From the sequence record PP582174.1: a stretch of 42,434 nt of DNA; one strand, given 5' to 3'. A program made the position numbers and the translations under genes. Below the pieces are notes generated by a model. It worked only from the letters and a program-made list of their open reading frames with translations. It made no database searches and was not told the origin of the DNA. Each line of letters begins with the position of its first letter. Positions within the stretch are counted from its first letter, which is position 1. Source of the DNA: Enterococcus phage vB_Efm3_KEN20. Below are positions 15,611 through 40,890 of this stretch, piece after piece.

Positions 15611-17386
15611 TTAGTAACCAAAGCCAAACTCTCCGCTATCTAGTAAATCTTGCAATGTTGGCGCGTCATAATCATGATATTGAGCGTCACTCATCGCATT
15701 TATTATGGCGTCAAGTGAGTCGATTTTATTTCTGTTTATTTGCTTATCAATTGCAACGCTGTCATTGTACTCTTTGATTATAGCATTGTATGCCGCGCGA
15801 TTCAATAAAGGATTATTGGTGTGCATTACTTCACCTCTGCGAATTAACTCACGCAATGCTCTTGTTGGTGAAGATAAATAGTTTATTTTCTGTGGCACTT
15901 CAATTAGTTTTTTGGGATAGGTTTTACTTAGATTAATTAACGCTTTATCCATCATAAATGGATCATAATAGATTCCAATCAGTTGTAAATCATTATAATC
16001 TATAAAGTCACGTATCCAATCACACATCTCTTCTGTGTCTATTAGGCCATCCTCACGTTGGGATATATGAATGAGCTTCATTGACTCATATTGTCTGTAG
16101 GGTATTTTGTCAATTGACTGCTTATGGTCAATACCTCCCACTGATGATACAAAGCCATGTGTGTCTAGTAATAATTTGTGCTCCTCTTCTATTGGAATAA
16201 TCCATGAAACCGCGGTCATGTCTGATGTTCTGGCTAAGTCAATACCAATGTATACTTTTCTACCTCTAATATCATAATTATTAGTTGCTTTCACTGCGTC
16301 CCATTCTTCTTTGGTTACAAAGCTATCTTTGGATGATTGAACCCAGAAATTCATTTCTTTAGTTAACCAGCCAGATAAATCCATTTTACCTTTGTACTCA
16401 TCTAAAGAGTTGTTTTTGTGTTCCATCATTGAATCCCACGCTTCTGGAATTTCAAATAATGGATTGGATTTGATCCAGTTTGTAGGATCATCTACCTCAG
16501 CAAGTGAGTCCATTTCCCAACAAAGAGCCAAATAAGCGTCACCTTTTACTTCTTCATTTAACAACTTCTCTACAAATGGATATTCTTCTGTATGCATGGG
16601 TCCATTTAAATTTTTTGTAGTGGTTGAAATAATCATGATTAAGCCTTCAACCTGTTGTGCTTGTGAAGATTCTAATACTTGAATAATATCTGATGTTTTA
16701 GCTTCTCCATACTCATCCAGAATACCGCATAGCACATCTAATCCATCTAATGTTTCTGCGTCACTTGACAACTGTTTCATAGTTGAAAAGTCTGATAACT
16801 CTACCCCCTCACGTTTTGTGATTTTACTTCGTTTCTTAACCTCTGGTGATACATTACGCAGTGCATATAGATACTTTACTAGCATTCCATATACAATACC
16901 TGCTTGATCTTTTGTGTTTGCTGCTGCCACTACCTGTCTAGAAGCTTTTGGATTTTTACCAAATAGCAGCTCATATAGTGCAATCCCTGCTACGAGAATA
17001 GACTTACCATTCTTACGTGCTAATGAAATATATGCTTTTCTAAAACGTCTGGTATTGTCTTTCTTTTTTCTCCATCCATAAATCAAACCAACGATGAATT
17101 TCTGAAACGTTGCTAACTTCATTGGCTGACGTGATTTGGGGTCTGGTAACATTTCAATAAAGTTCACTACTGGCACAGCTTCTTCTGGTCTATAAATATA
17201 TGGATACGATTTATCTTCAGATTTTTTCATATCCTTTTGATGTCTCTCGATTGCTTGTTTGATTTTTTTACCAACTCTGATTTCAACCTTGATAGGTTTA
17301 TAATAATCTTCTTCTACTATATATTTACGTCCTTCAATCCATCCTGTTTCAATAAGATTAATATAGTCTTGTACATAGTCTACCAT
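15611..17386 (-). CDS. terL: Terminase large subunit
   Basis: 591 aa, ATPase plus nuclease organisation; RBS AAAGGAGG. Confidence 0.85.
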   Translation of the reverse strand: MVDYVQDYINLIETGWIEGRKYIVEEDYYKPIKVEIRVGKKIKQAIERHQKDMKKSEDKSYPYIYRPEEAVPVVNFIEMLPDPKSRQPMKLATFQKFIVGLIYGWRKKKDNTRRFRKAYISLARKNGKSILVAGIALYELLFGKNPKASRQVVAAANTKDQAGIVYGMLVKYLYALRNVSPEVKKRSKITKREGVELSDFSTMKQLSSDAETLDGLDVLCGILDEYGEAKTSDIIQVLESSQAQQVEGLIMIISTTTKNLNGPMHTEEYPFVEKLLNEEVKGDAYLALCWEMDSLAEVDDPTNWIKSNPLFEIPEAWDSMMEHKNNSLDEYKGKMDLSGWLTKEMNFWVQSSKDSFVTKEEWDAVKATNNYDIRGRKVYIGIDLARTSDMTAVSWIIPIEEEHKLLLDTHGFVSSVGGIDHKQSIDKIPYRQYESMKLIHISQREDGLIDTEEMCDWIRDFIDYNDLQLIGIYYDPFMMDKALINLSKTYPKKLIEVPQKINYLSSPTRALRELIRRGEVMHTNNPLLNRAAYNAIIKEYNDSVAIDKQINRNKIDSLDAIINAMSDAQYHDYDAPTLQDLLDSGEFGFGY

Positions 17387-17418
17387 TTATGTATCCTCCT
17401 TTTATGCTAGTCACTTAT

Positions 17419-17429
17419 ATTATAGCATA
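17419..17429 (-). promoter_or_regulatory. Extended -10 promoter TATGCTATAAT (minus strand) for terL
   Basis: Motif 3' of the terminator hairpin and 5' of the terL RBS. Confidence 0.5.
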
Positions 17430-17436
17430 AAAAAAT

Positions 17437-17463
17437 ACCCACTAGTTAGCTAGACTAGTGGGT
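17437..17463 (-). terminator. Intrinsic terminator acccactagt-tagctag-actagtgggt plus T-run
   Basis: 10-bp perfect stem, followed on the minus strand by TTTTTTT. Confidence 0.7.
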
Positions 17464-17903
17464 ATTGGTAGTATCTGCTAGTACACACGCCCTACGTTAA
17501 GAGTGTACTAGCTTTCTGTGTGCATGTCATCAAGTAGGGTCATACTATCACACTTTACGCCAGATACTGTGGCAAAGCACTCTTTTTTTAGAGAGGTGGT
17601 GTATCCTCTATTAAGTATTAAGCCAGTTTTGGGAGGATCTGTAAACCTCTATTGTCCGCTGACGGTTAAGGTTTCCAACTCCGTCACAGTGCAGATTTTA
17701 TGGCCTGTTTTTCCACACGTTTTGGTGTCTCATGCTTGCGGTGTCACACGAGCGGAATTATCACACCACCTACTATGTACATCCTACACCACGCATGATG
17801 TAGGACAAGCGCAATCCGTAGAAATACGCCTCAATTGTAAATTCATTGCCACGTATGGTGCACATAATATCCTTGAATATCAGTGGGTGTCACGTGTACT
17901 AGT
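17437..17903 (-). ncRNA. Candidate ~470-nt structured non-coding RNA with its own promoter and terminator between terS and terL
   Basis: No minus-strand ORF over 60 aa. GC clearly above flanking DNA. Many local hairpins, plus a possible end-closing pairing CTAGTACAC (17479-17487) with GTGTACTAG (17893-17901). Bracketed by the promoter at 17910-17920 and the terminator at 17437-17463. Confidence 0.45.
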
Positions 17904-17909
17904 AAATAT

Positions 17910-17920
17910 ATTATAACACA
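17910..17920 (-). promoter_or_regulatory. Extended -10 promoter TGTGTTATAAT (minus strand)
   Basis: Its 5' half is the 3' arm of the terS terminator hairpin. Confidence 0.5.
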
Positions 17921-17938
17921 AAATCCGACTTTTGTGTT
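17915..17938 (-). terminator. Hairpin aacacaaaa-tccgac-ttttgtgtt after terS
   Basis: 9-bp perfect stem. Confidence 0.5.
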
Positions 17939-18009
17939 ATTTAGTGTATCTAATGTTTACCCCTTATTTGCTATATACATTATACCACATCTATTTAGTT
18001 TTGTGTAGG

Positions 18010-18468
18010 TTATCCCTCAAACATTTTTGCGAATGGGTCAAGTACTTCTTTTTCTTTCTCTGCTGGAAGAATAATCTTCATTCTTGAGTTGATTGTTAAT
18101 CCAAGGTCGTTGGTGGAAGTTTTAAGCTCTTTTGAGTAGGAGTTAACAATATCAACTAGTGGGTTCTTTTTGCCATCTGGAGTGATTGCACCTTCCATAT
18201 CTAAACGTTCAACCGCTTCTGCATACAAATATGTGTAATTACAATAACGAATCATGGTATTCATATCTAGCTCGCTGATTGGTAAGTCTCCAATATATGA
18301 GCCAATACGTTGCCATTCGTTGAATGCTCCTTTCAATAATCCTGGTGGGAAGTAGCTGAAGTCTAGTTTCTCATAATTATAAAGCACTTCTTCTTCTTTT
18401 TCTTTTGCTTCTCGTTCTTCAATTGTTAAGTGTTTACTCGTTGCATTCAATAGTTTACGTGGGCGCAT
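18010..18468 (-). CDS. terS: Terminase small subunit (P27-family-like)
   Basis: Start set at MRPRKLL (ATG 18468, AAGGAGG 10 nt upstream). Conserved WQRIG...YCNYTYLYAEAVERL...GKKNPLV pattern of P27-type TerS. Confidence 0.75.
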   Translation of the reverse strand: MRPRKLLNATSKHLTIEEREAKEKEEEVLYNYEKLDFSYFPPGLLKGAFNEWQRIGSYIGDLPISELDMNTMIRYCNYTYLYAEAVERLDMEGAITPDGKKNPLVDIVNSYSKELKTSTNDLGLTINSRMKIILPAEKEKEVLDPFAKMFEG

Positions 18469-18473
18469 AATAA

Positions 18474-18992
18474 TCACACCTCCTTATATTTGAATGTGTA
18501 TCCTTTTGTTTGCTTTTGTTTACCTAAACATACATCACAAATACTCCTCCTAGATACACCTAGTTCTTCACTCGCATAACGAGCGTTGATATAGACTTTT
18601 CCTGTTTCAACACAATATACTTCCTTAGACATTTTAATTAGTGCTGTACGAGTTCTATTTCCGTGATTAATATTCTCTTTTCTAGTCACCCATTCTAAAT
18701 TTGATACTTTATTGTTAGCTTTGTTCTCGTCAATATGATTAATTTGTGGCTTATTTTCTGGGTTTGGTATGAAAGCTTGTGCGACTAAGCGATGAACTGA
18801 ATATCCCTTACTTTTACTGTTCTTACATAGAATAACATTTTCATATCCATTGGGTCTAATTGAGGTTGATTTAATTCTACCTTTCAATCTATGATTTGCG
18901 CTATCTAACCTATCTACACTTCTAACTCTACCTAAGTTGCTAATTTGATACAACCCGTCATATCCTTTTATATCTTTCCAAACTTCTTCCAT
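18474..18992 (-). CDS. HNH homing endonuclease (NUMOD4/HNH_3 type), paralog A
   Basis: MEEVWKDIKGYDGLYQISNLGRV...HRLVAQAFIPNPENKPQINHIDENKANNKVSNLEW...GYTFKYKEV. Start moved to ATG 18992 (RBS AAAGAGGAGG). Own TGTGCTATCATAAT promoter upstream. Its 3' end encodes the terS RBS. Confidence 0.8.
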   Translation of the reverse strand: MEEVWKDIKGYDGLYQISNLGRVRSVDRLDSANHRLKGRIKSTSIRPNGYENVILCKNSKSKGYSVHRLVAQAFIPNPENKPQINHIDENKANNKVSNLEWVTRKENINHGNRTRTALIKMSKEVYCVETGKVYINARYASEELGVSRRSICDVCLGKQKQTKGYTFKYKEV

Positions 18993-19048
18993 AAATAAAA
19001 CCTCCTCTTTCATACTATTATGATAGCACAAATAAAGGAGGTTGTCAA

Positions 19049-19593: not shown

Positions 19594-19977
19594 TTACCTA
19601 CCTCTATTTTTCCAACTGTAGCTATGTTCTTCCTTGTTGTGACACTCGTAACAGATTGACTCTAAGTTATTTAAATCAAGTCTATGTTTCCATCCATTTG
19701 GACTTCTTAATTCAATTATATGATGCACAAGGTTTGCGTTGGTGTACTTGCCTTGTGCCAAGCATACCTCGCATAGTGGTTGCTCCATTAGCTTAGCTTT
19801 ACGTGCGTTCCTCCATTGGGTTGAATGATAGAAGGTACTGTACTTCTTGTTGTCGTCATTGTATCTTACGTGCTTATTGTATTGGCTATTGTTGTACCCT
19901 TGATGTGCGTCACAGTAGCGCTCAGGTAGCGTAACATAGTTACGACAAGAAGATACAGCACACTTGCGTTGTCTCAT
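19594..19977 (-). CDS. HNH endonuclease (packaging-associated, zinc-ribbon N-terminus)
   Basis: Classic HNH motif HHIIELRSPNGWKHRLDLNNLESICYECHNKEEH. Start set at MRQRKCAVSSC (ATG 19977, RBS GAGAGGAG). Location next to cos/terS is typical of cos phages. Confidence 0.8.
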   Translation of the reverse strand: MRQRKCAVSSCRNYVTLPERYCDAHQGYNNSQYNKHVRYNDDNKKYSTFYHSTQWRNARKAKLMEQPLCEVCLAQGKYTNANLVHHIIELRSPNGWKHRLDLNNLESICYECHNKEEHSYSWKNRGR

Positions 19978-20009
19978 TGCGTTACTCCTCTCTACTATTA
20001 TATAGAAGA

Positions 20010-20034
20010 AAAGACTACTATTATTTAGTAGTCT
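20010..20034 (-). terminator. Hairpin aagactact-attattt-agtagtctt, then a TATATAAT -10 element on the minus strand
   Basis: 9-bp perfect stem overlapping the stop of the 66-aa gene. Confidence 0.5.
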
Positions 20035-20221
20035 TCTTTGTTTTAACAACGATCTTGTCTGTTGGTTGTTCTACATTGACTGATTCAGATTCTTTACGTG
20101 TTAGATCTGACGCTTTGATGTCTTGTTCAAATGGTGTATGTTTAGCACAGTATTGTGCTGGTAGCTTAACTGTTTCATTACATCCTTGTTGGTTGCAGTA
20201 CATGTATGGCAAGTGGAACAC
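20021..20221 (-). CDS. Small zinc-ribbon protein, paralog of the N-terminal Cys motif of the packaging HNH
   Basis: CNQQGCNETVKLPAQYCAKH versus CAVSSCRNYVTLPERYCDAH in the HNH; start ambiguous (GTG at 20221, TTG at 20212, ATG at 20203). Confidence 0.5.
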   Translation of the reverse strand: MFHLPYMYCNQQGCNETVKLPAQYCAKHTPFEQDIKASDLTRKESESVNVEQPTDKIVVKTKKTTK

Positions 20222-20759: not shown

Positions 20760-21260
20760 CTCCTTCTCTTTGTTTCTATTATATCATAGATAAGGGATAC
20801 TGTGTTGGTTAACGGAACCAGTTGGCTTTATTAATTAAATAACAAATTTAAAATGTTGCGTTTTTAATAATGACGTAAAAATGTCAGTGGTAAAATGCTT
20901 TAATATCAACTATTACAGCTATTATTCTCTAATGAATGACATACGAATGACAAACGGAAAATGGCTGTATCCTTTCTCTCCCATAGCTTTTAATATGTTA
21001 TTGACATTATGACATATTATACTTATAAAAAATAAAATATAATAATACATTATCATGTAGTAACTATATATTTCCGTTTAAAATAAAATGGGGTGTCATT
21101 TTGTCATCATATCAAACATGGTCTCTCAAATGTTGATAACTCAACGTTTCTTACATTTATAATTAATGACAAAAAAGTCATTAATTATTTAGATGAGATA
21201 ATAGTTGACAATTGTATCAATAGATGGTAACATTGGTTTATAAATTAAAAGGAGGAAACA
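20760..21260. promoter_or_regulatory. Divergent early control region with an array of TGACA/TGTCA half-sites (operators or origin iterons) and divergent promoters
   Basis: AT-rich 500 bp between the two arms. Half-site pairs at 20871-20887, 20937-20952, 21002-21015, 21095-21108, an 18-bp palindrome aatgacaaaaaagtcatt at 21165-21182, and 21204-21220. Leftward TGATATAAT promoter near 20790-20800. Confidence 0.5.
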
Positions 21261-23608: not shown

Positions 23609-23986
23609 ATGACAATATTAAAACGGTACAAATGTATAAAATCAAATGATGAACAAAGATTTGCTGTGGGAGAAATATATCCATTATATAATAACGGTTA
23701 TAAAAATTACGTTGTAGCGAATAATAATGTGAATTGGTATGAAAATGAATTTCCAATTATTAAACGAGACTATGGTATTGAATTTGAGGAGGTAAAAGAA
23801 AAAATATTTGATCTAAACAAACTGATCACATTAACCAGAATTGATGAAAACACGGTATATGTAAACATTAATCACATTGCAGCTTTCTATCACAACAAAG
23901 CTTGGGAATATACTATTGTTATACTGTCAGACGGTACTCAATTAGATATAAAAGACTCAGTAGAATCAATTGCTAACTATTTTTAA
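23609..23986 (+). CDS. Hypothetical protein
   Basis: 125 aa; RBS TAGGAGGA. Confidence 0.5.
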
Positions 23987-24015
23987 TCAAAAGTATAGCA
24001 CAAATGAAAAGTTTG

Positions 24016-24024
24016 TGTTATACT
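24016..24024 (+). promoter_or_regulatory. Extended -10 element TGtTATACT ahead of HNH paralog B
   Basis: Matches the -10 TATACT of the early promoters; no clear -35. Confidence 0.35.
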
Positions 24025-24047
24025 CATTACATAAGGGGGAATTAATA

Positions 24048-24557
24048 ATGAATGAAATTTGGAAAGATGTTAAAGATTATGAAGAACTCTATCAAGTGAG
24101 TAATTTGGGAAGAGTTAAGCGAGTTAATACTAACCGTATTTTGAAGGGTAGTAAAGAACCAATAGGCTATCTAAGAGTTAGATTATCTACAAACGGTATT
24201 GTATCTACTAAGAAAATCCACCGTCTAGTAGCAGAAGCATTTATCCCAAACTCTGAAAACAAACCACAAGTAAACCATATTGATGAGGATAAGACAAATA
24301 ACATGGTTTCAAATCTTGAATGGTCTACAAGTAAAGAAAATAATAACCACGGAACACACAATATAAGATCGGCTAAAACGCGAGGTATTCCAATCATTGC
24401 AACTAATATAAAAACCGGAGAATATCAAGAGTTCTATGGAACAGCTGAATGCGCTAGACAATTAGGTTTACATCAACAAAATATCACATCAGTATTAAAA
24501 GGTAGACTGAATCAAACTGGGGACTACACGTTTAAATATAAGGAGGAATTAAAATAA
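24048..24557 (+). CDS. HNH homing endonuclease (NUMOD4/HNH_3), paralog B
   Basis: [26 protein letters not shown]...[35 protein letters not shown]...[12 protein letters not shown]. Start at ATG 24048 with AAGGGGGA RBS. The ORF-track N-terminal extension lacks an RBS. Confidence 0.8.
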
Positions 24558-26155: not shown

Positions 26156-26653
26156 ATGAAAGAAATTTGGAAAGATATTGAAGGATATGAAGGCGTTTAT
26201 CATGTGAGTAACTTAGGACGAGTGAAGAGAGTTGCAACAAATAGAGTTTTACAACCATATAGAAACAAAGTTGGCTATTTACTAGTTTATTTATGTAAAA
26301 ACGGTAAGCGTAAAACTCATAGAATCCACCGTTTAGTAGCACAATCTTTCATACCAAACCCAGAAAATAAACCAGAAGTTAATCACCTAGATGAAAATAA
26401 GATTAATAATATGGTTTCAAATCTAGAATGGTCAACTAGAAAAGAAAACTGTAACTATGGAACGCGTAATGAAAGACTGAGTATCCCAATCATAGCAACT
26501 AATCTAAAGACTGGTGAATCTAGAGAGTTCTATGGATCAAATGAATGTGCTAGACAATTAGCATTAAATACCGCACACATTACAAGTGTTCTAAAAGGTA
26601 GATTGAAACAAACAGGTGGATACACATTCCAATATAAGGAGGAAGAGGAATGA
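26156..26653 (+). CDS. HNH homing endonuclease, paralog C
   Basis: [26 protein letters not shown]...[35 protein letters not shown]...GGYTFQYKEEEE. Confidence 0.8.
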   Translation: MKEIWKDIEGYEGVYHVSNLGRVKRVATNRVLQPYRNKVGYLLVYLCKNGKRKTHRIHRLVAQSFIPNPENKPEVNHLDENKINNMVSNLEWSTRKENCNYGTRNERLSIPIIATNLKTGESREFYGSNECARQLALNTAHITSVLKGRLKQTGGYTFQYKEEEE

Positions 26654-27448: not shown

Positions 27449-27657
27449 TGAATGCAGAAGAAATCACTAATTTTGAAAATTCAGTTGACATTCAATCAAT
27501 TGATGTTATAACGGCTGACGAGGATAATCATGTTTATATTAGAGTTGTAGATGAAGAGACATCTACAACGATTCAACTAACATTACCAGAAGCCATTGAC
27601 TTCATAGAATGTTTAGAACTAGCGGTTCACAAAAATATGATGAATGGAGGATTTTAA
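27448..27657 (+). CDS. Hypothetical acidic protein
   Basis: Start set at ATG 27448 (GGGAGG upstream); the ORF-track start at 27433 is a TTG without an RBS. Confidence 0.5.
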   Translation: MNAEEITNFENSVDIQSIDVITADEDNHVYIRVVDEETSTTIQLTLPEAIDFIECLELAVHKNMMNGGF

Positions 27658-27750
27658 GAATGTTAACAAGTGATGAAATATTCACTAAGGAAGAGCAGTT
27701 GTGCTACTATCATAATATAATAAAATCTTTGATGCAAAAATGGAGGAAGA

Positions 27751-30260: not shown

Positions 30261-31001
30261 ATGAAACAATTAAGACTGAAGAAGAATGGTAAAGCACCAC
30301 TAGTGGCTGGAGCGTTCAATGGAGAATCAGAAGAGTTAATTCAAAAATGGATACAAGAAGGGGGTAACGTTGGAACACTAACCGGGTCAAAAAGTGGCAT
30401 TGCAGTCATTGACATTGATAATCATAATGGAGTGGATGGTCTTGGTAACTTGAAAGAGTTCTTAGATACGTATGACATCACTTTACCAAAAACGCAAGTC
30501 ATTAAAACTCCAAGTGGTGGACTACACTACTACTTTAAATTAGATGAAAAATACAATGACACGCAATTCATTCAAAACCATTCACAACTTGCAGGGGTTG
30601 ATTTCCAAGTCCACGGCAGGTACGTTGTAGCACCACCTAGCCAAATTGATGGTAACTATTATAAGGTAGTACGTGACGTAGAAATGGCAGAATTACCTGA
30701 GAAATGGTTAGAAATATTCACAGATAAAAGTATTACTAAAAAGAATAAACCTCGCGAGAAGAAATGGACTGGTCAATTAATGGAAAGTATACTTACTGGC
30801 GCAGGAGCAGGGTCAAGGAATATATTTTTAGCCTCAACAATTGGCAAGCTATTCGCAACAGGAATGGATCATGACGCGGTTAGGGTATGGAGTTTATACG
30901 TAAACCAGATTTCATTAAATCCACCACTACCAGAAGAGGAGGTATTACGAACATATGACTCAGTTAGAAAACGTGAATTACGAAGAATGGCGGACAATTA
31001 A
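30261..31001 (+). CDS. Prim-Pol type DNA primase (bifunctional primase/polymerase N-terminal domain)
   Basis: [10 protein letters not shown]...GGLHYYF...GRYVVAPPS pattern typical of the Prim-Pol catalytic domain; RBS GAGGAGGAAG. Confidence 0.6.
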
Positions 31002-31488
31002 AGGATATGAAGGTATTTATGAAATAAGTAGTTTTGGTAGAGTTAGAAGTTTGAATTACAATAACCAAAAAGGAAATATAAAAGTTAGACCAAGTGTTCC
31101 TCATAAACATGGGTATAGACAAATTAAACTAGGTAATAAAAGCAAATTAATACACCGCTTAGTAGCAGAAGCATTTATCCCAAACCATGAAAATAAACCT
31201 TGTGTTAATCATCTGGACGAGGATAAGACAAATAATAGAGTTGATAACTTAGAATGGGTAACAAAGAAAGAAAATAACAATTATGGTACTAAGAATATTA
31301 GAAGCGCATACAAGAATAAATACATTTCTGGAAACTTCAAATCCGTTATATGCTCAAATGGAGTAGAGTATTTTAGTGTGTCAGAAGCTTGTCGTCAATT
31401 AGATTTAGACCCAAGTACTGTCGTAAAAATTCTAAAAGGTACACGTAAAAGTACAGGAGGCTACACATTTAAATATAAGGAGGAGTAA
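30955..31488 (+). CDS. HNH homing endonuclease, paralog D (overlaps the 3' end of the Prim-Pol gene)
   Basis: ...[24 protein letters not shown]...[35 protein letters not shown]...[10 protein letters not shown]. Confidence 0.75.
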
Positions 31489-31828: not shown

Positions 31829-32140
31829 ATGTTTAATGAATCTGAAGAACTACAGAATACACTTGATAAAATAATACAGGGTTCACGTATTACAGGCAGT
31901 GTATTTGAACCTGAAGAATTAAAAAATACAAAACGCTACAAAACCAGCTCAGGTAAACAACTCTTTGACGTGCTAGAAGATGATTTACTAACTTATGAAG
32001 AATTACGTGGTTTCTACAAAGCGAACATTTACAAATATACACACAGATATAAACAAAAAAACGGCATTGAAGATTTGAAAAAAGTAAAGGTCTATGTAGA
32101 TCAACTAATAAAACTGGAGGAAAAACAAGATGAGATTTGA
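31829..32140 (+). CDS. Hypothetical protein (possibly DUF3310-like)
   Basis: 103 aa; the segment LFDVLEDDLLTYEELRGFYKANIYKYTHRYKQKNGIEDLKKVKVYVDQL resembles small conserved phage proteins; unverified. Confidence 0.4.
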   Translation: MFNESEELQNTLDKIIQGSRITGSVFEPEELKNTKRYKTSSGKQLFDVLEDDLLTYEELRGFYKANIYKYTHRYKQKNGIEDLKKVKVYVDQLIKLEEKQDEI

Positions 32141-32600
32141 ACCATTAAACGAACCCTATGATATGTATGCAATAACAGATGAAGGTCACGTGTTTCATTT
32201 AGACAAAGAACGATATGAACAAGAAATAGTTGATCCAAAAAATGGAAAGATGTATGTAGTACTTAACGGATCACACAAAAAGTCACGTAAATTCTACGTC
32301 TCTCAATTAGTAGCAGATATGTTTGTTAGAAATGAGCATAACTTAGGATATTTATATTTCAAAGATGGTAACGTACAAAATAGTCATTACACAAATATTG
32401 GTTACGCTATTAATCCAAAAGAAGGGGTAGAACGTGTGGCACGTCCTTTCAGAAATAAAGTAGAGCCAAAACGCCATGCCTTGATTGTTGCTATTGGAGA
32501 AGCGTGTGAGAAAAAGGATTGGAAAGAAGCTAATAAACTAGGAAAAGAACTTTGGCAATTGGAGGGCGCATCGTATGAAAACAGAAACCATGAGTTTTGA
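32130..32600 (+). CDS. Degenerate HNH_3-like protein (catalytic His replaced)
   Basis: VSQLVADMFV...LYFKDGNVQNSHYTNIGY parallels HRLVAEAFI...[15 protein letters not shown] of the HNH paralogs but lacks the first His; RBS GGAGGA. Confidence 0.4.
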   Translation: MRFEPLNEPYDMYAITDEGHVFHLDKERYEQEIVDPKNGKMYVVLNGSHKKSRKFYVSQLVADMFVRNEHNLGYLYFKDGNVQNSHYTNIGYAINPKEGVERVARPFRNKVEPKRHALIVAIGEACEKKDWKEANKLGKELWQLEGASYENRNHEF

Positions 32601-35334: not shown

Positions 35335-35363
35335 AATAAAGTAAAAAGAGTTGACCTTATGTG

Positions 35364-35393
35364 TTGACTCTTTTCTTTTATCATGCTATTATA
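35364..35393 (+). promoter_or_regulatory. Promoter TTGACT-N18-TGcTATTAT with the shared 5'UTR motif attatataaatataga
   Basis: Tandem GTTGAC motifs (35350-35369); same -10/UTR block as at 26911-26926. Confidence 0.45.
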
Positions 35394-35422
35394 TAAATAT
35401 AGAAATAAGGAGGATGAATAAA

Positions 35423-35935
35423 ATGAAAGAAATTTGGAAAGACATTGAAGGGTATGAAGGATTATACCAAGTAAGTAACTTGGGGAGAGTGAAAAGAGTT
35501 ACAACAGGTAGGATTTTGAAAGGTGGTAAAGATAGAGGTGGCTATCTAATAGTTAGCTTATATAAAAACAATATTGAATCTAAAAAGTTAATTCATCGTC
35601 TAGTAGCTCAAGCTTTTATACCAAACACTGAGAATAAACCACAAGTTAATCATATAGACGAAGATAAAACAAATAATATGGTTTCAAATCTAAATTGGAT
35701 GACAGCTAAAGAAAACTCAAATCATGGAACACATAATGAAAGAATGAGTAAAACGAAAAGTATTCCAATCATTGTAACTGATATTAAAACTGGTGAATCT
35801 ACAGAGTTCAATAGTGGTAAAGAATGTGCTAGACAATTAGGTCTGCATAAGCAAGGTATTAGCGCAGTTCTAAAAGGTAAACTCAGACAAACTGGAGGCT
35901 ACACATTCAAATACTTAAATGAAGGAGTAGACTAA
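35423..35935 (+). CDS. HNH homing endonuclease, paralog E
   Basis: [26 protein letters not shown]...[35 protein letters not shown]...GGYTFKYLNEGVD; start at ATG 35423 (AAGGAGG). Confidence 0.8.
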   Translation: MKEIWKDIEGYEGLYQVSNLGRVKRVTTGRILKGGKDRGGYLIVSLYKNNIESKKLIHRLVAQAFIPNTENKPQVNHIDEDKTNNMVSNLNWMTAKENSNHGTHNERMSKTKSIPIIVTDIKTGESTEFNSGKECARQLGLHKQGISAVLKGKLRQTGGYTFKYLNEGVD

Positions 35936-39545: not shown

Positions 39546-39766
39546 TGATTAAAATTTATACTAAAAACAACTGCATGCCTTGCAAAATGACGAAGAACTG
39601 GTTTAAAGGCAAAGGACACACCTTCACTGAGGTGAATGTAGATGATAACCTAGAAGGGTTAAATGAATTACTTACTATGAACCTAAGAACACTACCTGTA
39701 GTGTTTAAAGATGATGAGTTTGTGAGTATGGGGTTTGCACCAAATAAATGGGAAGAATTTAAGTAG
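39545..39766 (+). CDS. nrdH: NrdH-like glutaredoxin (CxxC redoxin)
   Basis: 73 aa, IKIYTKNNCMPCKMTK...LPVVF thioredoxin-fold pattern with a CMPC active site; RBS GGAGGAAG. Confidence 0.6.
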   Translation: MIKIYTKNNCMPCKMTKNWFKGKGHTFTEVNVDDNLEGLNELLTMNLRTLPVVFKDDEFVSMGFAPNKWEEFK

Positions 39767-39808
39767 GGAGGAAGATTAGTGTTGAAGAACACACTTATTT
39801 CTCTAAAA

Positions 39809-39846
39809 AAGTGTGTTCTTCACGAGCATTCTAAGCACTTTAAATT
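39809..39846. repeat. Direct repeat R1 (~38 bp) at the 3' flank of the lysis cassette; partner at 41553-41589
   Basis: agtgtgttcttcacgagcattctaagcacttttaaatt versus agtgtgtctctcacgagcattttaaggcgtttaaatt; cores TCACGAGCATT and TTTAAATT are identical; R1 also forms an inverted repeat with 39783-39793. Confidence 0.6.
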
Positions 39847-39882
39847 AATCAAACAATGTAATTACCCAATTAAATACAAAAG

Positions 39883-39910
39883 AAAACCACTGGACTAACC
39901 AGTGGTTTTT
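39883..39910. terminator. Bidirectional intrinsic terminator aaaaccactgg-actaa-ccagtggtttt at the convergence of the two arms
   Basis: 11-bp perfect stem flanked by A-run and T-run between nrdH (+) and the endolysin (-). Confidence 0.75.
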
Positions 39911-39912
39911 TG

Positions 39913-40890
39913 TTATAAGCTCAAATAGATTGAGTCAATTCGTACATCGTTTACTGCACCTTCACCATTAGATTTATTAGCTCTACGTAAAATCACATCT
40001 ACTTTTTTACCTTTGAACTGGTTCTTATTGACTGTTACATCAAAACCAAGTTCTTGTCCACCTTGATAACCGTATGCTTTCTTCACGTCTGGGCGTTTAA
40101 TGCCAGCAGATTGAACACGTGTCAACTCTTTACCAGTGCCATGTTGCATAAAGATGACATACGCATATTTTCCAATTGGACCTTGTGGTTTATCAGGAAC
40201 TAACCAACCAGCCACACGAATTTGGTCTTTACCATGACCATTAAAGTAATCAAGTTTACCCCATGCATTACCTTGATGTTTTGCTGGACTTGCAGCTACT
40301 GCCTTATCATGTTGACTAGGTGTTGAAGGCTTAGATGGTGTTGGTGCTGGCGCTGGAGAAGGTTTGTTGTTACTTTTAGCGTTAGCCACATCACTTCTAA
40401 ACTGAGCTAGATTGATACCCCATTTAGCAAGATATGGAATAGGGTCAACATGGTCAGAACCATTATTTGGTTGATTATGTGTTGCATAGTTATGTGTGAT
40501 GATACCAGTGTTACCTTGGTCAACGGTGGTAGGTAAGCCTGCTTGTTTTGCTAAGTCATGCAATAACTCACAATAAATCTTATAATCACGCATGAACTCA
40601 TCTCTATTAGAGTGGGATTCAATTAATTCAACTGAAGCATAACCCCATTGATTCCAACCTCCACCAACATCCCATGCGCCACGATTAACTTCAGCTAGTT
40701 GGATTACACGTCCATTACCTACAAGGTGAGTATAAAAACCAGTGTTGATGTCTTTAGTCTGAAAATAATCTGCCTCGTTTTGTGCTGTACTACGTGGGTT
40801 ACCTGTACTGTGGGCGTGTACTTGACCATATGGAGCATATCCAACTTGAGGCAACCCTGGTCTAATTCGTCTTTCTACTTTATAAGCCAT
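39913..40890 (-). CDS. Endolysin: N-acetylmuramoyl-L-alanine amidase (Amidase_2/PGRP domain) with Pro/Ser/Ala linker and C-terminal cell-wall-binding domain
   Basis: 325 aa; N-terminal PGRP-like catalytic region (..HSTGNP..), linker [16 protein letters not shown], distinct C-terminal domain; last gene of the lysis cassette. Confidence 0.8.

Follow-up and report, generated by a model that had tools for sequence, protein, structure and literature searches.

The subject of this work is the interval between the terminase genes terS and terL of Enterococcus phage vB_Efm3_KEN20, an Enterococcus faecium siphophage, in which an initial annotation, made from the sequence alone, had proposed a large structured RNA of an uncatalogued class. 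The window is the whole stretch of DNA analysed, 42,434 nucleotides (nt) of record PP582174.1. Some described systems lie close to this locus. Phage morons are accessory genes that have their own promoter and terminator and are placed between late genes, as in HK97. Pectobacterium phage PhiTE reportedly defeats ToxIN with a pseudo-ToxI RNA, a mimic of the type III antitoxin. Examples of the abiF motif (Rfam RF03085) are RCd22 of C. difficile and AbiFr of Prevotellaceae. This motif is the antitoxin RNA of AbiF/Abi_2 HEPN toxins, in type III toxin-antitoxin abortive-infection systems, and it binds and neutralises AbiF in cis as well as in trans (PMC12373285; PMC13064643; PMC12737573). Phages of Lactobacillales carry large structured RNAs of unknown function (PMC5737381), and Fremin and Bhatt 2023 give, from the IMG/VR catalogue, 14 candidate structured RNAs found consistently upstream of the large terminase gene (PMC10690425). 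No description of the RNA treated here was found in the searchable literature; the catalogue of Fremin and Bhatt may list a part of it.

Structure of the predicted RNA

The comparison of related phages strongly supports that the terS–terL gap holds a self-contained minus-strand gene for a non-coding structured RNA of about 470 nt (about 17903 to 17428). The minus strand of 17430-17905 folds with a minimum free energy of -146.5 kcal/mol, with z = -4.5 in relation to dinucleotide-shuffled controls. The terS–terL junctions gathered from GenBank phages, IMG/VR and metagenomes gave 45 distinct gaps, and these present compensatory base changes in every part of the transcript, including three pseudoknots, which indicates that selection has kept base pairing in every module. 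G-U pairs exceed A-C mismatches (38:8 in the core alignment and 39:1 in a second alignment), and therefore the folded molecule is the minus-strand RNA, not duplex DNA. The earlier proposal of a large RNA of an uncatalogued class agrees with the covariation in every module, the strong terminator, the lack of an Rfam match and the lack of a conserved open reading frame (ORF) in the 45 gaps.

As predicted from the alignments, the RNA consists of modules that follow one another and fold independently, M1a, M2, domain B, M4 and the core:

17848-17896, minus strand: M1a, a variant of the abiF-type hairpin, with outer stem CACGUG/UACGUG, inner stem CAC/GUG, loop enlarged to a sub-hairpin and 3' bulge CACCA
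17782-17832, minus strand: M2, two hairpins (17807-17832 and 17782-17805), from RNAalifold on 11 sequences, with compensatory changes
17655-17767, minus strand: domain B, pseudoknotted, with closing stem GGUGU/ACACC, hairpin Bb, a variable hairpin and hairpin Bd
17729-17752, minus strand: hairpin Bb, whose loop ACCGC (17738-17742) pairs with GCGGA (17655-17659)
17660-17686, minus strand: hairpin Bd, with invariant loop AGUUGGAAACCUUA and covarying pairs
17592-17649, minus strand: M4, two small hairpins (17633-17649 and 17592-17609), with GAGG/CCUC exchanged for GUGG/CCAC in alignment A1
17470-17574, minus strand: core, a double pseudoknot made of H1, H2, H4, PK1 and PK2, from the 26-sequence test
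17558-17574, minus strand: core hairpin H1
17563-17568 with 17470-17475, minus strand: core PK1, in which the H1 loop AGUAUC pairs with GAUACU just before the terminator
17517-17554, minus strand: core stem H2
17534-17539 with 17490-17495, minus strand: core PK2, loop-loop, CCCUAC with GUAGGG
17477-17512, minus strand: core H4, a 12-bp hairpin

For the core and terminator, 94.4% of the cells in 26 distinct sequences form standard pairs, and 17 of 45 pairs are changed on both sides, in relation to 10.4 +/- 1.5 in shuffles (0 of 500 reach 17) and to at most 3 in a control with the partners slid; the independent events are fewer than these cell counts imply, since the structure was derived from the same, related sequences. 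Each of the six core/terminator helices has at least one compensatory pair, and PK1 has just one.

In domain B, the Bb loop pairs with the 4-7 nt just past the hairpin that carries the invariant loop AGUUGGAAACCUUA, and this pseudoknot occurs in three complementary versions (ACCGC/GCGGU, UUCCUC/GAGGAA and ACCUCA/UGAGGU), as does the Bd stem (UGACGG/CCGUCA, UGUGAG/CUCACA and UAGGAG/CUCCUA). An independent RNAalifold run on 11 sequences predicted 29 pairs over M2 and the Bd hairpin, 15 of them compensatory; in M2, for example, CCUACA/UGUAGG is exchanged for CCCCAG/CUUUGGGG. M4 is substituted by other modules in many relatives. Domain B and the double-pseudoknot core are thus new to Rfam, and the comparison supports both RNA structures well.

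The three stem-loops named in the initial annotation exist (17592-17609, 17782-17805 and 17660-17686), and the last two covary in relatives. Its 9-bp pairing closing the whole domain had a different outcome. A long-range pairing of the 5' end with 17472-17486 is present in the window (15 nt, 87% complementary), but it competes with the covarying H4 hairpin (17477-17512) and is not kept in two relatives (L009 and L033) that have the window's 5' module with a different H4 or 3' domain; the domain-closing helix was rejected.

Searches against known families did not place the RNA. Rfam 15 gave nothing at gathering score in the whole window and only noise in the gap at E <= 10. There was no match to the models of ROOL, GOLLD, OLE, HEARO and raiA (gap at E <= 10; 14 related loci at E <= 0.5), and for group I/II introns and self-cleaving ribozymes the gap gave only a 16-nt fragment of 11.7 bits, which is noise. 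Large-RNA and intron families of this kind had been named as candidates in the initial annotation, and none matches. The terS and terL genes are separate and complete, with no gene interrupted as by an intron. Tandem Repeats Finder (minimum score 30) returned 0 rows, the direct repeats being short two-copy matches; with no tandem repeats, the RNA is not a type III antitoxin array (repeats of about 34-40 nt). A non-coding RNA array linked to a reverse transcriptase, as in a 2026 preprint, was also rejected: no reverse transcriptase was found among the larger window proteins scanned with Pfam/PHROGs, and the protein of 759 amino acids (aa) is a DNA polymerase.

It is hardly credible that the interval is instead a decayed protein gene, such as an HNH remnant, or a real gene for a small protein. 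The frame considered is the following:

17518-17916, plus strand: antisense ORF of 132 aa, spurious, with no Pfam/PHROG family and a frame that is not conserved

This frame is open for 132-134 codons and is annotated as hypothetical in vB_Efm3_KEN18, and HNH and methyltransferase genes insert at the same junction in relatives. On the other hand, the ORF is shortened or broken in most relatives, its product has no match in Pfam or in PHROGs, and the substitutions in the helices are compensatory, not codon-like. The antisense frame has 134 codons in the window and 43-109, of varying extent, in most related E. faecium-type gaps. The longest sense-strand frame in the gap has 46 codons, in agreement with the earlier statement that no sense ORF exceeds 60 aa, and sense frames in related gaps reach at most 67 codons where no gene is inserted. 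No conserved ORF was found on either strand among the compared gaps, nor any protein family, and coding potential was rejected for both strands; the plus-strand ORF is spurious, as had been supposed. In database records the terS–terL gap is empty or filled with tiny spurious ORFs.

Module exchange and distribution among related phages

The 45 unique gaps span 95 to 1927 base pairs (bp) and share a frame around a mosaic interior: TGnTATAAT lies past the terS stop, a near-invariant terminator hairpin with a T-run is penultimate, and the gap ends with a TGCTATAAT site and the terL ribosome-binding site. The core is present in 28 gaps and domain B in 20, all of E. faecium type, and M1 is present in 14, from both phage groups, E. 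faecium-type and E. faecalis-type. The E. faecalis-type phages (phiSHEF2-like; terS and terL 60-70% identical) present the same layout with different module sequences, and the core model R1 had no match in their gaps. A second, unrelated set of covarying RNA modules occurs in these phiSHEF2-like gaps (L023-L030 and L281-L286), some of which hold an extra mini-unit formed by a terminator, ACACA..TGTTATAAT, about 30 nt and a terminator.

The shortest gap (L279, 95 bp) has the terminator and the terL promoter only, and another (L017, 173 bp) has the M1 hairpin and the terminator only, so that the unit is reduced to promoter, abiF-like hairpin and terminator; the RNA is therefore accessory. In vB_Efm8_KEN21 (L032, 2868-3193) the core and terminator are duplicated in tandem, with two cores. 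In one contig (L015, 4600-5345; L278 has an identical gap), a D12 methyltransferase gene precedes three B domains and two cores, which look like parts of one transcript. Protein genes occupy the same junction in some relatives, namely a D12-class methyltransferase, a NUMOD4/HNH endonuclease and an 86-aa ORF. Taken together, the aligned gaps indicate that the terS–terL junction is an insertion hot spot and that modules are gained, lost, duplicated and exchanged between related Enterococcus phages. Two points missing from the initial annotation are added by this comparison, namely that the RNA is, as far as the sequences indicate, a mosaic of exchangeable modules, not a single closed domain, and that the first of them is related to abiF.

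At least seven HNH-type homing-endonuclease genes are present in this 42-kb genome (Pfam NUMOD4/HNH_3/HNH; PHROG 59/959), and homing-linked gene conversion may drive the mosaicism of the junction:

18474-19031, minus strand: HNH-type gene (Pfam/PHROG)
19594-20049, minus strand: HNH-type gene (Pfam/PHROG)
23970-24557, plus strand: HNH-type gene (Pfam/PHROG)
26156-26653, plus strand: HNH-type gene (Pfam/PHROG)
30955-31488, plus strand: HNH-type gene (Pfam/PHROG)
32130-32600, plus strand: HNH-type gene (Pfam/PHROG)
35351-35935, plus strand: HNH-type gene (Pfam/PHROG)

The same comparison bears on a role in packaging, either as a cofactor RNA of the terminase or portal, by analogy with the packaging RNA (pRNA) of phi29, or as a DNA packaging signal recognised by terS. 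Two phage groups with terS and terL only 60-70% identical have kept the position HNH-terS-RNA-terL-portal, and the complementary loops of PK2 could in principle pair between molecules, as those of pRNA do. However, the core and domain B are missing from L279 and L017, whose terS and terL genes are the same, the modules are wholly different between the two phage groups, and the G-U asymmetry denotes selection on the RNA strand, not on a duplex. The records of relatives begin about 260-450 bp upstream of terS, which would place the genome ends there and not in the gap, and no Rfam match to phi29-type pRNA was found in the window or in the gap. We consider a packaging role very unlikely, and the cis-acting packaging element that the initial annotation had offered as an alternative is not favoured, since these relatives lack the RNA or most of its modules and selection acts on the pairing of one strand.

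The distribution of the RNA is narrow. The gap sequence is 100% identical in vB_Efm3_KEN18 and KEN22, and the 36 phage records similar to it are Enterococcus phages without exception. Model R1 found one copy in the window, with 159 bits, and elsewhere matched only in terS–terL gaps of this clade. A gapped core pattern occurred in 14 IMG/VR contigs, every one from this phage clade, and in 0 of 185,579 representative bacterial and archaeal genomes, from which the 19-mer of the terminator is also absent. In a blastn search of 72,556 plasmids, no counterpart of the whole RNA, domain B or the core was found.

Three further candidates were discarded. The matches of the invariant 15-mer GAGTTGGAAACCTTA in phages of about 57 kb fall within a protein-coding ORF and are due to chance. 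Matches of a 16-mer core pattern outside the clade are also chance, none being confirmed by model R1. A weak core-model match in the window (39764-39915, plus strand, 18 bits) does not represent another copy of the RNA: the site is just a bidirectional terminator (AAAACCACUGG..CCAGUGGUUUU) that stands between convergent genes, upstream of the endolysin gene.

The abiF-type hairpin and the decoy reading

The only Rfam family that surfaced in the related loci is abiF (RF03085), always at the first module past the promoter, with 31.1 bits in L026 (E = 0.0013 locally), 21.3 in L024 and 19.9 in dArtagnan (L002, partial). The match takes in both stems, outer and inner (3 bp), together with the loop CCUCUUAACAAU and the 3' bulge. 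The copies M1b and M1c have the complete abiF architecture, which consists of a 6-bp outer stem, a spacer, a 3-bp inner stem, an 11-nt loop CCUCUYAACRAU and a 3' bulge of 5-6 nt.

A model built solely from six phage M1b/c copies (R2) found a hairpin immediately upstream of Abi_2 genes on E. hirae/E. faecium plasmids (28.2 and 27.1 bits; E about 1e-3, 121 kb). The proteins encoded downstream of such hairpins are Pfam Abi_2, and Abi_2 relatives occur on 55 Enterococcus plasmid records, including E. faecium conjugative plasmids. After its promoter, the plasmid hairpin reads AAGCGAGU-CUUACC-G-CGC-CUAUCGAUGAA-GCG-UACCA-GGUAAG-GCC-U run, and M1b of dArtagnan and KEN21 reads AAGCGAGU-AUGGGG-G-CGC-CUCUUAACAAU-GCG-UACCA-CCCCAU-GCC, so that the common sequence, AAGCGAGU..G CGC C..GCG UACCA..GCC, is also found outside the stems. 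The alignment score of M1b with the E. faecium plasmid hairpin is 45 (shuffles 18.4 +/- 3.9). The relation between M1 and the plasmid hairpins is visible only by eye and with the phage-derived R2. In the alignment derived from R2, 96.4% of the cells pair and there are 50 compensatory cells, in relation to 15.7 in shuffles, figures that favour the structure because the alignment was fitted to the model.

In the window, the best R2 match (17844-17906, E about 0.4) is at the expected place. M1a shares 86.8% identity with the copy of phiSHEF2-type phages, to which R2 gives 32.6 bits. M1a and the Abi_2 hairpin of an E. faecalis plasmid, whose loop is expanded similarly, align with a score of 39 (shuffles 21.5 +/- 4.0; 1 of 2000 reach it). 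These likenesses suggest that the first module is related to abiF-type antitoxin hairpins. The gene downstream of the RNA is terL and not an adjoining Abi_2/AbiF gene, and no Abi_2 gene was found in the window, where tblastn with four Enterococcus Abi_2 proteins gave noise only (E >= 0.08). In another of the sequences compared, E. faecalis plasmid pBE65_2 (L424), an unannotated region resembling Abi_2 is preceded, at about 100 nt, by a tRNA gene (726-799, 71 bits).

Then, we propose, with a probability of about 40%, that the RNA acts in trans as an anti-defence decoy whose 5' module is an orphan mimic of the antitoxin, directed at host Abi_2 toxins. On Enterococcus plasmids the antitoxin hairpin lies before Abi_2 toxin genes (AbiD/AbiF, HEPN RNase), and the 5' module would be an orphan copy of it. 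The phage promoter would yield the RNA in quantity, and the decoy would keep the host toxin bound and inactive as host transcription fails. As for the remaining modules, they could serve to stabilise the transcript, or each could be a decoy for some other RNA-controlled toxin. Such a decoy would explain the promoter-RNA-terminator layout, the missing cognate toxin gene, the presence, absence and swapping of modules, and the minimal unit of L017. Antitoxin-RNA mimicry by phages is already known; an AbiF-type version within a larger modular RNA would be new.

Several observations weigh against the decoy. All abiF scores of the relatives are below the gathering score of 37, the best being 31.1, and no Rfam abiF match was found in the window at E <= 10 nor, at E <= 1, upstream of three Abi genes of Enterococcus plasmids. 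Stems, spacer and bulge are retained in M1a, but the loop of M1a has 23 nt with an inserted sub-hairpin, in relation to the 11-nt loop of abiF, and M1a reaches only 16.7 bits with R2. Domain B (20 gaps) and the core (28 gaps) are more widespread than M1 (14), which the decoy does not explain; they have no plasmid counterpart, with the core pattern in 0 of the 185,579 genomes. Because M1 occurs in 14 of 45 gaps and the core is commonest, the decoy idea covers at most one module. A region of Lactococcus phage sk1 was reported in 2000 to protect against AbiF. No abiF-like motif was found in sk1 by Rfam or R2, and the older result therefore gives no support to the decoy. Phage sk1 (L428) also presents two unannotated tRNA-like matches (27505-27575 and 27645-27717, with 55.9 and 39.9 bits) between ORF54 and the terminator of the middle transcript.

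The breadth of the core and domain B is the ground for another explanation, to which we give some weight while doubting it: a trans-acting ornate RNA unrelated to Abi, which, in the manner of ROOL/GOLLD, would for example be a sponge for proteins, a scaffold for assembly or a ribozyme, the abiF-like hairpin being merely a 5' stabiliser or a chance resemblance. No other part is as widespread or as intricate as the double-pseudoknot core, in 28 of 45 gaps; neither the core nor domain B has a counterpart in the host, the M1a of the window diverges from abiF, and large structured RNAs are known from phages of Lactobacillales, with function unknown (PMC5737381). Nevertheless, no similarity to ROOL, GOLLD or other Rfam families appears even at E <= 10, and the free gain and loss of modules, with relatives that have no RNA, argues against one integrated machine. 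In addition, the match between M1 and the hairpins upstream of host Abi genes reaches the unpaired flanks, and because of this the likeness is hard to ascribe to chance.

An extension of the decoy reading would make the locus a modular RNA array against defence, in which each module is a decoy for a different RNA-controlled host toxin or immune effector; we regard it as unlikely. Each of three modules (abiF-type hairpin, pseudoknot of domain B, double-pseudoknot core) would bind a host effector of its own, and modules would be shuffled, duplicated and replaced at the terS–terL junction in an arms race with plasmid-borne Abi systems. If such an array exists, the core and domain B would point to undiscovered RNA-antitoxin systems of Enterococcus.

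A survey for orphan hairpins gave at least 127 pattern matches in IMG/VR. Among the matches listed, 86 have the complete abiF stem architecture, and the 31 non-redundant ORFs downstream include one Abi_2 and five terminase subunits, the others being HNH, capsid and Dam. Among the loci listed (L302-L421), hairpins with the full architecture are common, come from many environments and mostly have no Abi_2 gene downstream; several of the listed hairpins lie just upstream of terS, terL or HNH genes.

Transcription of the locus and comparison with described systems

The flanking genes and the transcription signals of the locus are:

18010-18468, minus strand: terS, terminase small subunit (Pfam Terminase_4, E = 4.8e-13; same annotation in vB_Efm3_KEN18)
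17979-18006, minus strand: P1, promoter-like, ACACAA box and extended -10 TGTGGTATAAT just past the terS stop (consensus scan, motif listing)
17938-17978, minus strand: short conserved element between P1 and P2, GUAUAUAGCAAAUAAGGGGUAAACAUUAGAUACAC... (seen in alignment A1)
17910-17937, minus strand: P2, promoter-like, ACACAA box and TGTGTTATAAT (scans; the arrangement of box and -10 is found at other late-region sites)
17428-17466, minus strand: intrinsic terminator, 13-bp stem, loop CUAGCUA, U-run (terminator scan; compensatory pairs)
17395-17429, minus strand: P3, extended -10 TATGCTATAAT directly past the U-run, then the terL ribosome-binding site AAGGAGG (17395-17401) (motif listing; invariant in alignment A1)
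15611-17386, minus strand: terL, terminase large subunit (Pfam TerL_ATPase and TerL_nuclease)

Both terminase genes are intact and the gap between them has 623 bp (17387-18009), where about 620 had been given. The rise in G+C content that had been noticed by eye is confirmed, with 0.425-0.455 over 17500-17899 and about 0.30-0.39 in the flanks. ARAGORN found no tRNA in the window.

A consensus scan and motif listing gave TG-extended -10 matches at 17979-17987 (TGGTATAAT), 17910-17918 (TGTTATAAT) and 17419-17427 (TGCTATAAT), and these predicted sites (TGnTATAAT, the sigma-A consensus) are conserved in relatives. P1 is homologous in 18-22 of the 44 other unique gaps and the element between P1 and P2 in 13-17 of them; this element, of about 40 nt, would give a very short transcript or a 5' extension. 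From the predicted P2, whose -10 lines up with the one preceding the Abi-associated hairpins of the host, we infer a transcription start near 17903. The initial annotation had read 17910-17938 as a terS terminator hairpin combined with a promoter. The promoter match stands, as does an 11-nt inverted repeat (17913-17940), but the terminator was rejected: the repeat has no T-run, was not called by the terminator scan, and its ACACAA arm recurs at promoters. Since the 5' arm is this recurrent box, the repeat is taken as a -35-like element of the promoter class.

The terminator proposed at 17437-17463 is the single site called in the region (17466 to 17434, minus strand; 13 pairs, 5 of them G-C; 7-nt loop; T-run), a G+C-containing stem-loop followed by a U-run, whose pairs covary in the versions CCCAC/GUGGG, CUCAC/GUGAG and CUCCC/GGGAG. 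The terL promoter proposed immediately past it corresponds to P3. The terminator sequence, including the loop, is near-invariant across E. faecium-type phages and persists in L279 (393-428) without RNA modules. Its hairpin, CCCACUAGU-CUAGCUA-ACUAGUGGG, holds two ACTAGT sites, and it may have a second role, for example as a protein-binding or processing site.

Junctions of terminator and promoter (hairpin, T-run, TGnTATAAT) occur on the minus strand at 17427, 9591, 5205 and 1983, and the ACACAA box lies about 17 nt upstream of TGnTATAAT on the same strand at 20786, 19302, 17987, 17918, 13608, 10898 and 10224. The design of P1/P2 is seen at about 12 late-region sites, and the late region seems divided into successive short transcription units, the RNA gene being one.

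This organization bears on the idea of a cis-acting leader, that is, an attenuator or riboswitch controlling read-through at 17434-17466 into terL, or an antitermination RNA of put/EAR type. The structured RNA is directly upstream of the terminator and terL, the 3' strand of PK1 lies only 3-10 nt before the terminator stem, and abiF-type RNAs also act in cis via premature termination at their natural loci (PMC12373285). However, a conserved near-consensus P3 and a ribosome-binding site sit between the terminator and terL, so that terL has no need for read-through, and the late region is divided into many such terminator-then-promoter units. Relatives place whole genes (HNH, 86-aa ORF) between the terminator and terL, no conserved alternative pairing of the RNA with the terminator arm was seen, and the free swapping of modules is atypical for a sensor. 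A leader function seems improbable.

Enterococcus siphophages of this kind (~40-43 kb) are at present isolated with a view to treating infections by vancomycin-resistant E. faecium. Should the RNA be an antitoxin mimic, it would act as a determinant of host range and represent only the second kind of RNA-based escape from type III toxin-antitoxin defence, now against the AbiD/AbiF family. This family is now regarded as the ancestor of Cas13. The phage RNA could be tested against plasmid Abi_2 loci such as WP_002293769.1, from an E. faecium conjugative plasmid. The phenomenon may be general, because orphan abiF-type hairpins appear common in viral contigs, often beside terminase genes among the matches listed. 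The core and domain B are new RNA structures whatever the function of the RNA.

Among the described systems, the candidates of Fremin and Bhatt are likewise upstream of the large terminase gene, and IMG/VR holds members of this clade; in its accessible part, that paper proposes cis-regulation and gives neither the module anatomy nor a link to abiF (PMC10690425). The RNA resembles ROOL and GOLLD in having hundreds of nt, many pseudoknots, an association with phages, a function unknown and variable domains (PMC5737381). It differs from them in that their Rfam models do not match it even at E <= 10, in not lying beside tRNAs, and in being far narrower in distribution, with 14 IMG/VR contigs of one clade and 0 of 185,579 genomes.

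With the abiF loci, the RNA shares a promoter followed by a hairpin whose outer stem has 5-6 bp, whose spacer has 1 nt and whose inner stem has 3 bp (CGC/GCG or CAC/GUG); the loop of the phage hairpin begins with CUCU or CCACU, and the 3' bulge has 5-6 nt. In the window, the hairpin continues with about 400 nt of structured modules, and not straight with a terminator and a toxin gene. The likeness to PhiTE would be one of concept, in that a virulent phage blocks an abortive-infection toxin by expressing an orphan copy of the host's antitoxin RNA. In ToxI, pseudoknot repeats of 36 nt stand in tandem and are processed by the toxin, whereas the RNA of the window has no tandem repeats; the toxin family would be HEPN Abi_2 here and is ToxN there, and the function in the window is one that we infer.

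Like a moron, the RNA has its own promoter and terminator, as predicted, lies between two essential late genes and is dispensable in relatives, and the same junction also takes HNH, methyltransferase and small-ORF insertions. It differs from a moron in its cargo, which is a non-coding RNA and not a protein gene.

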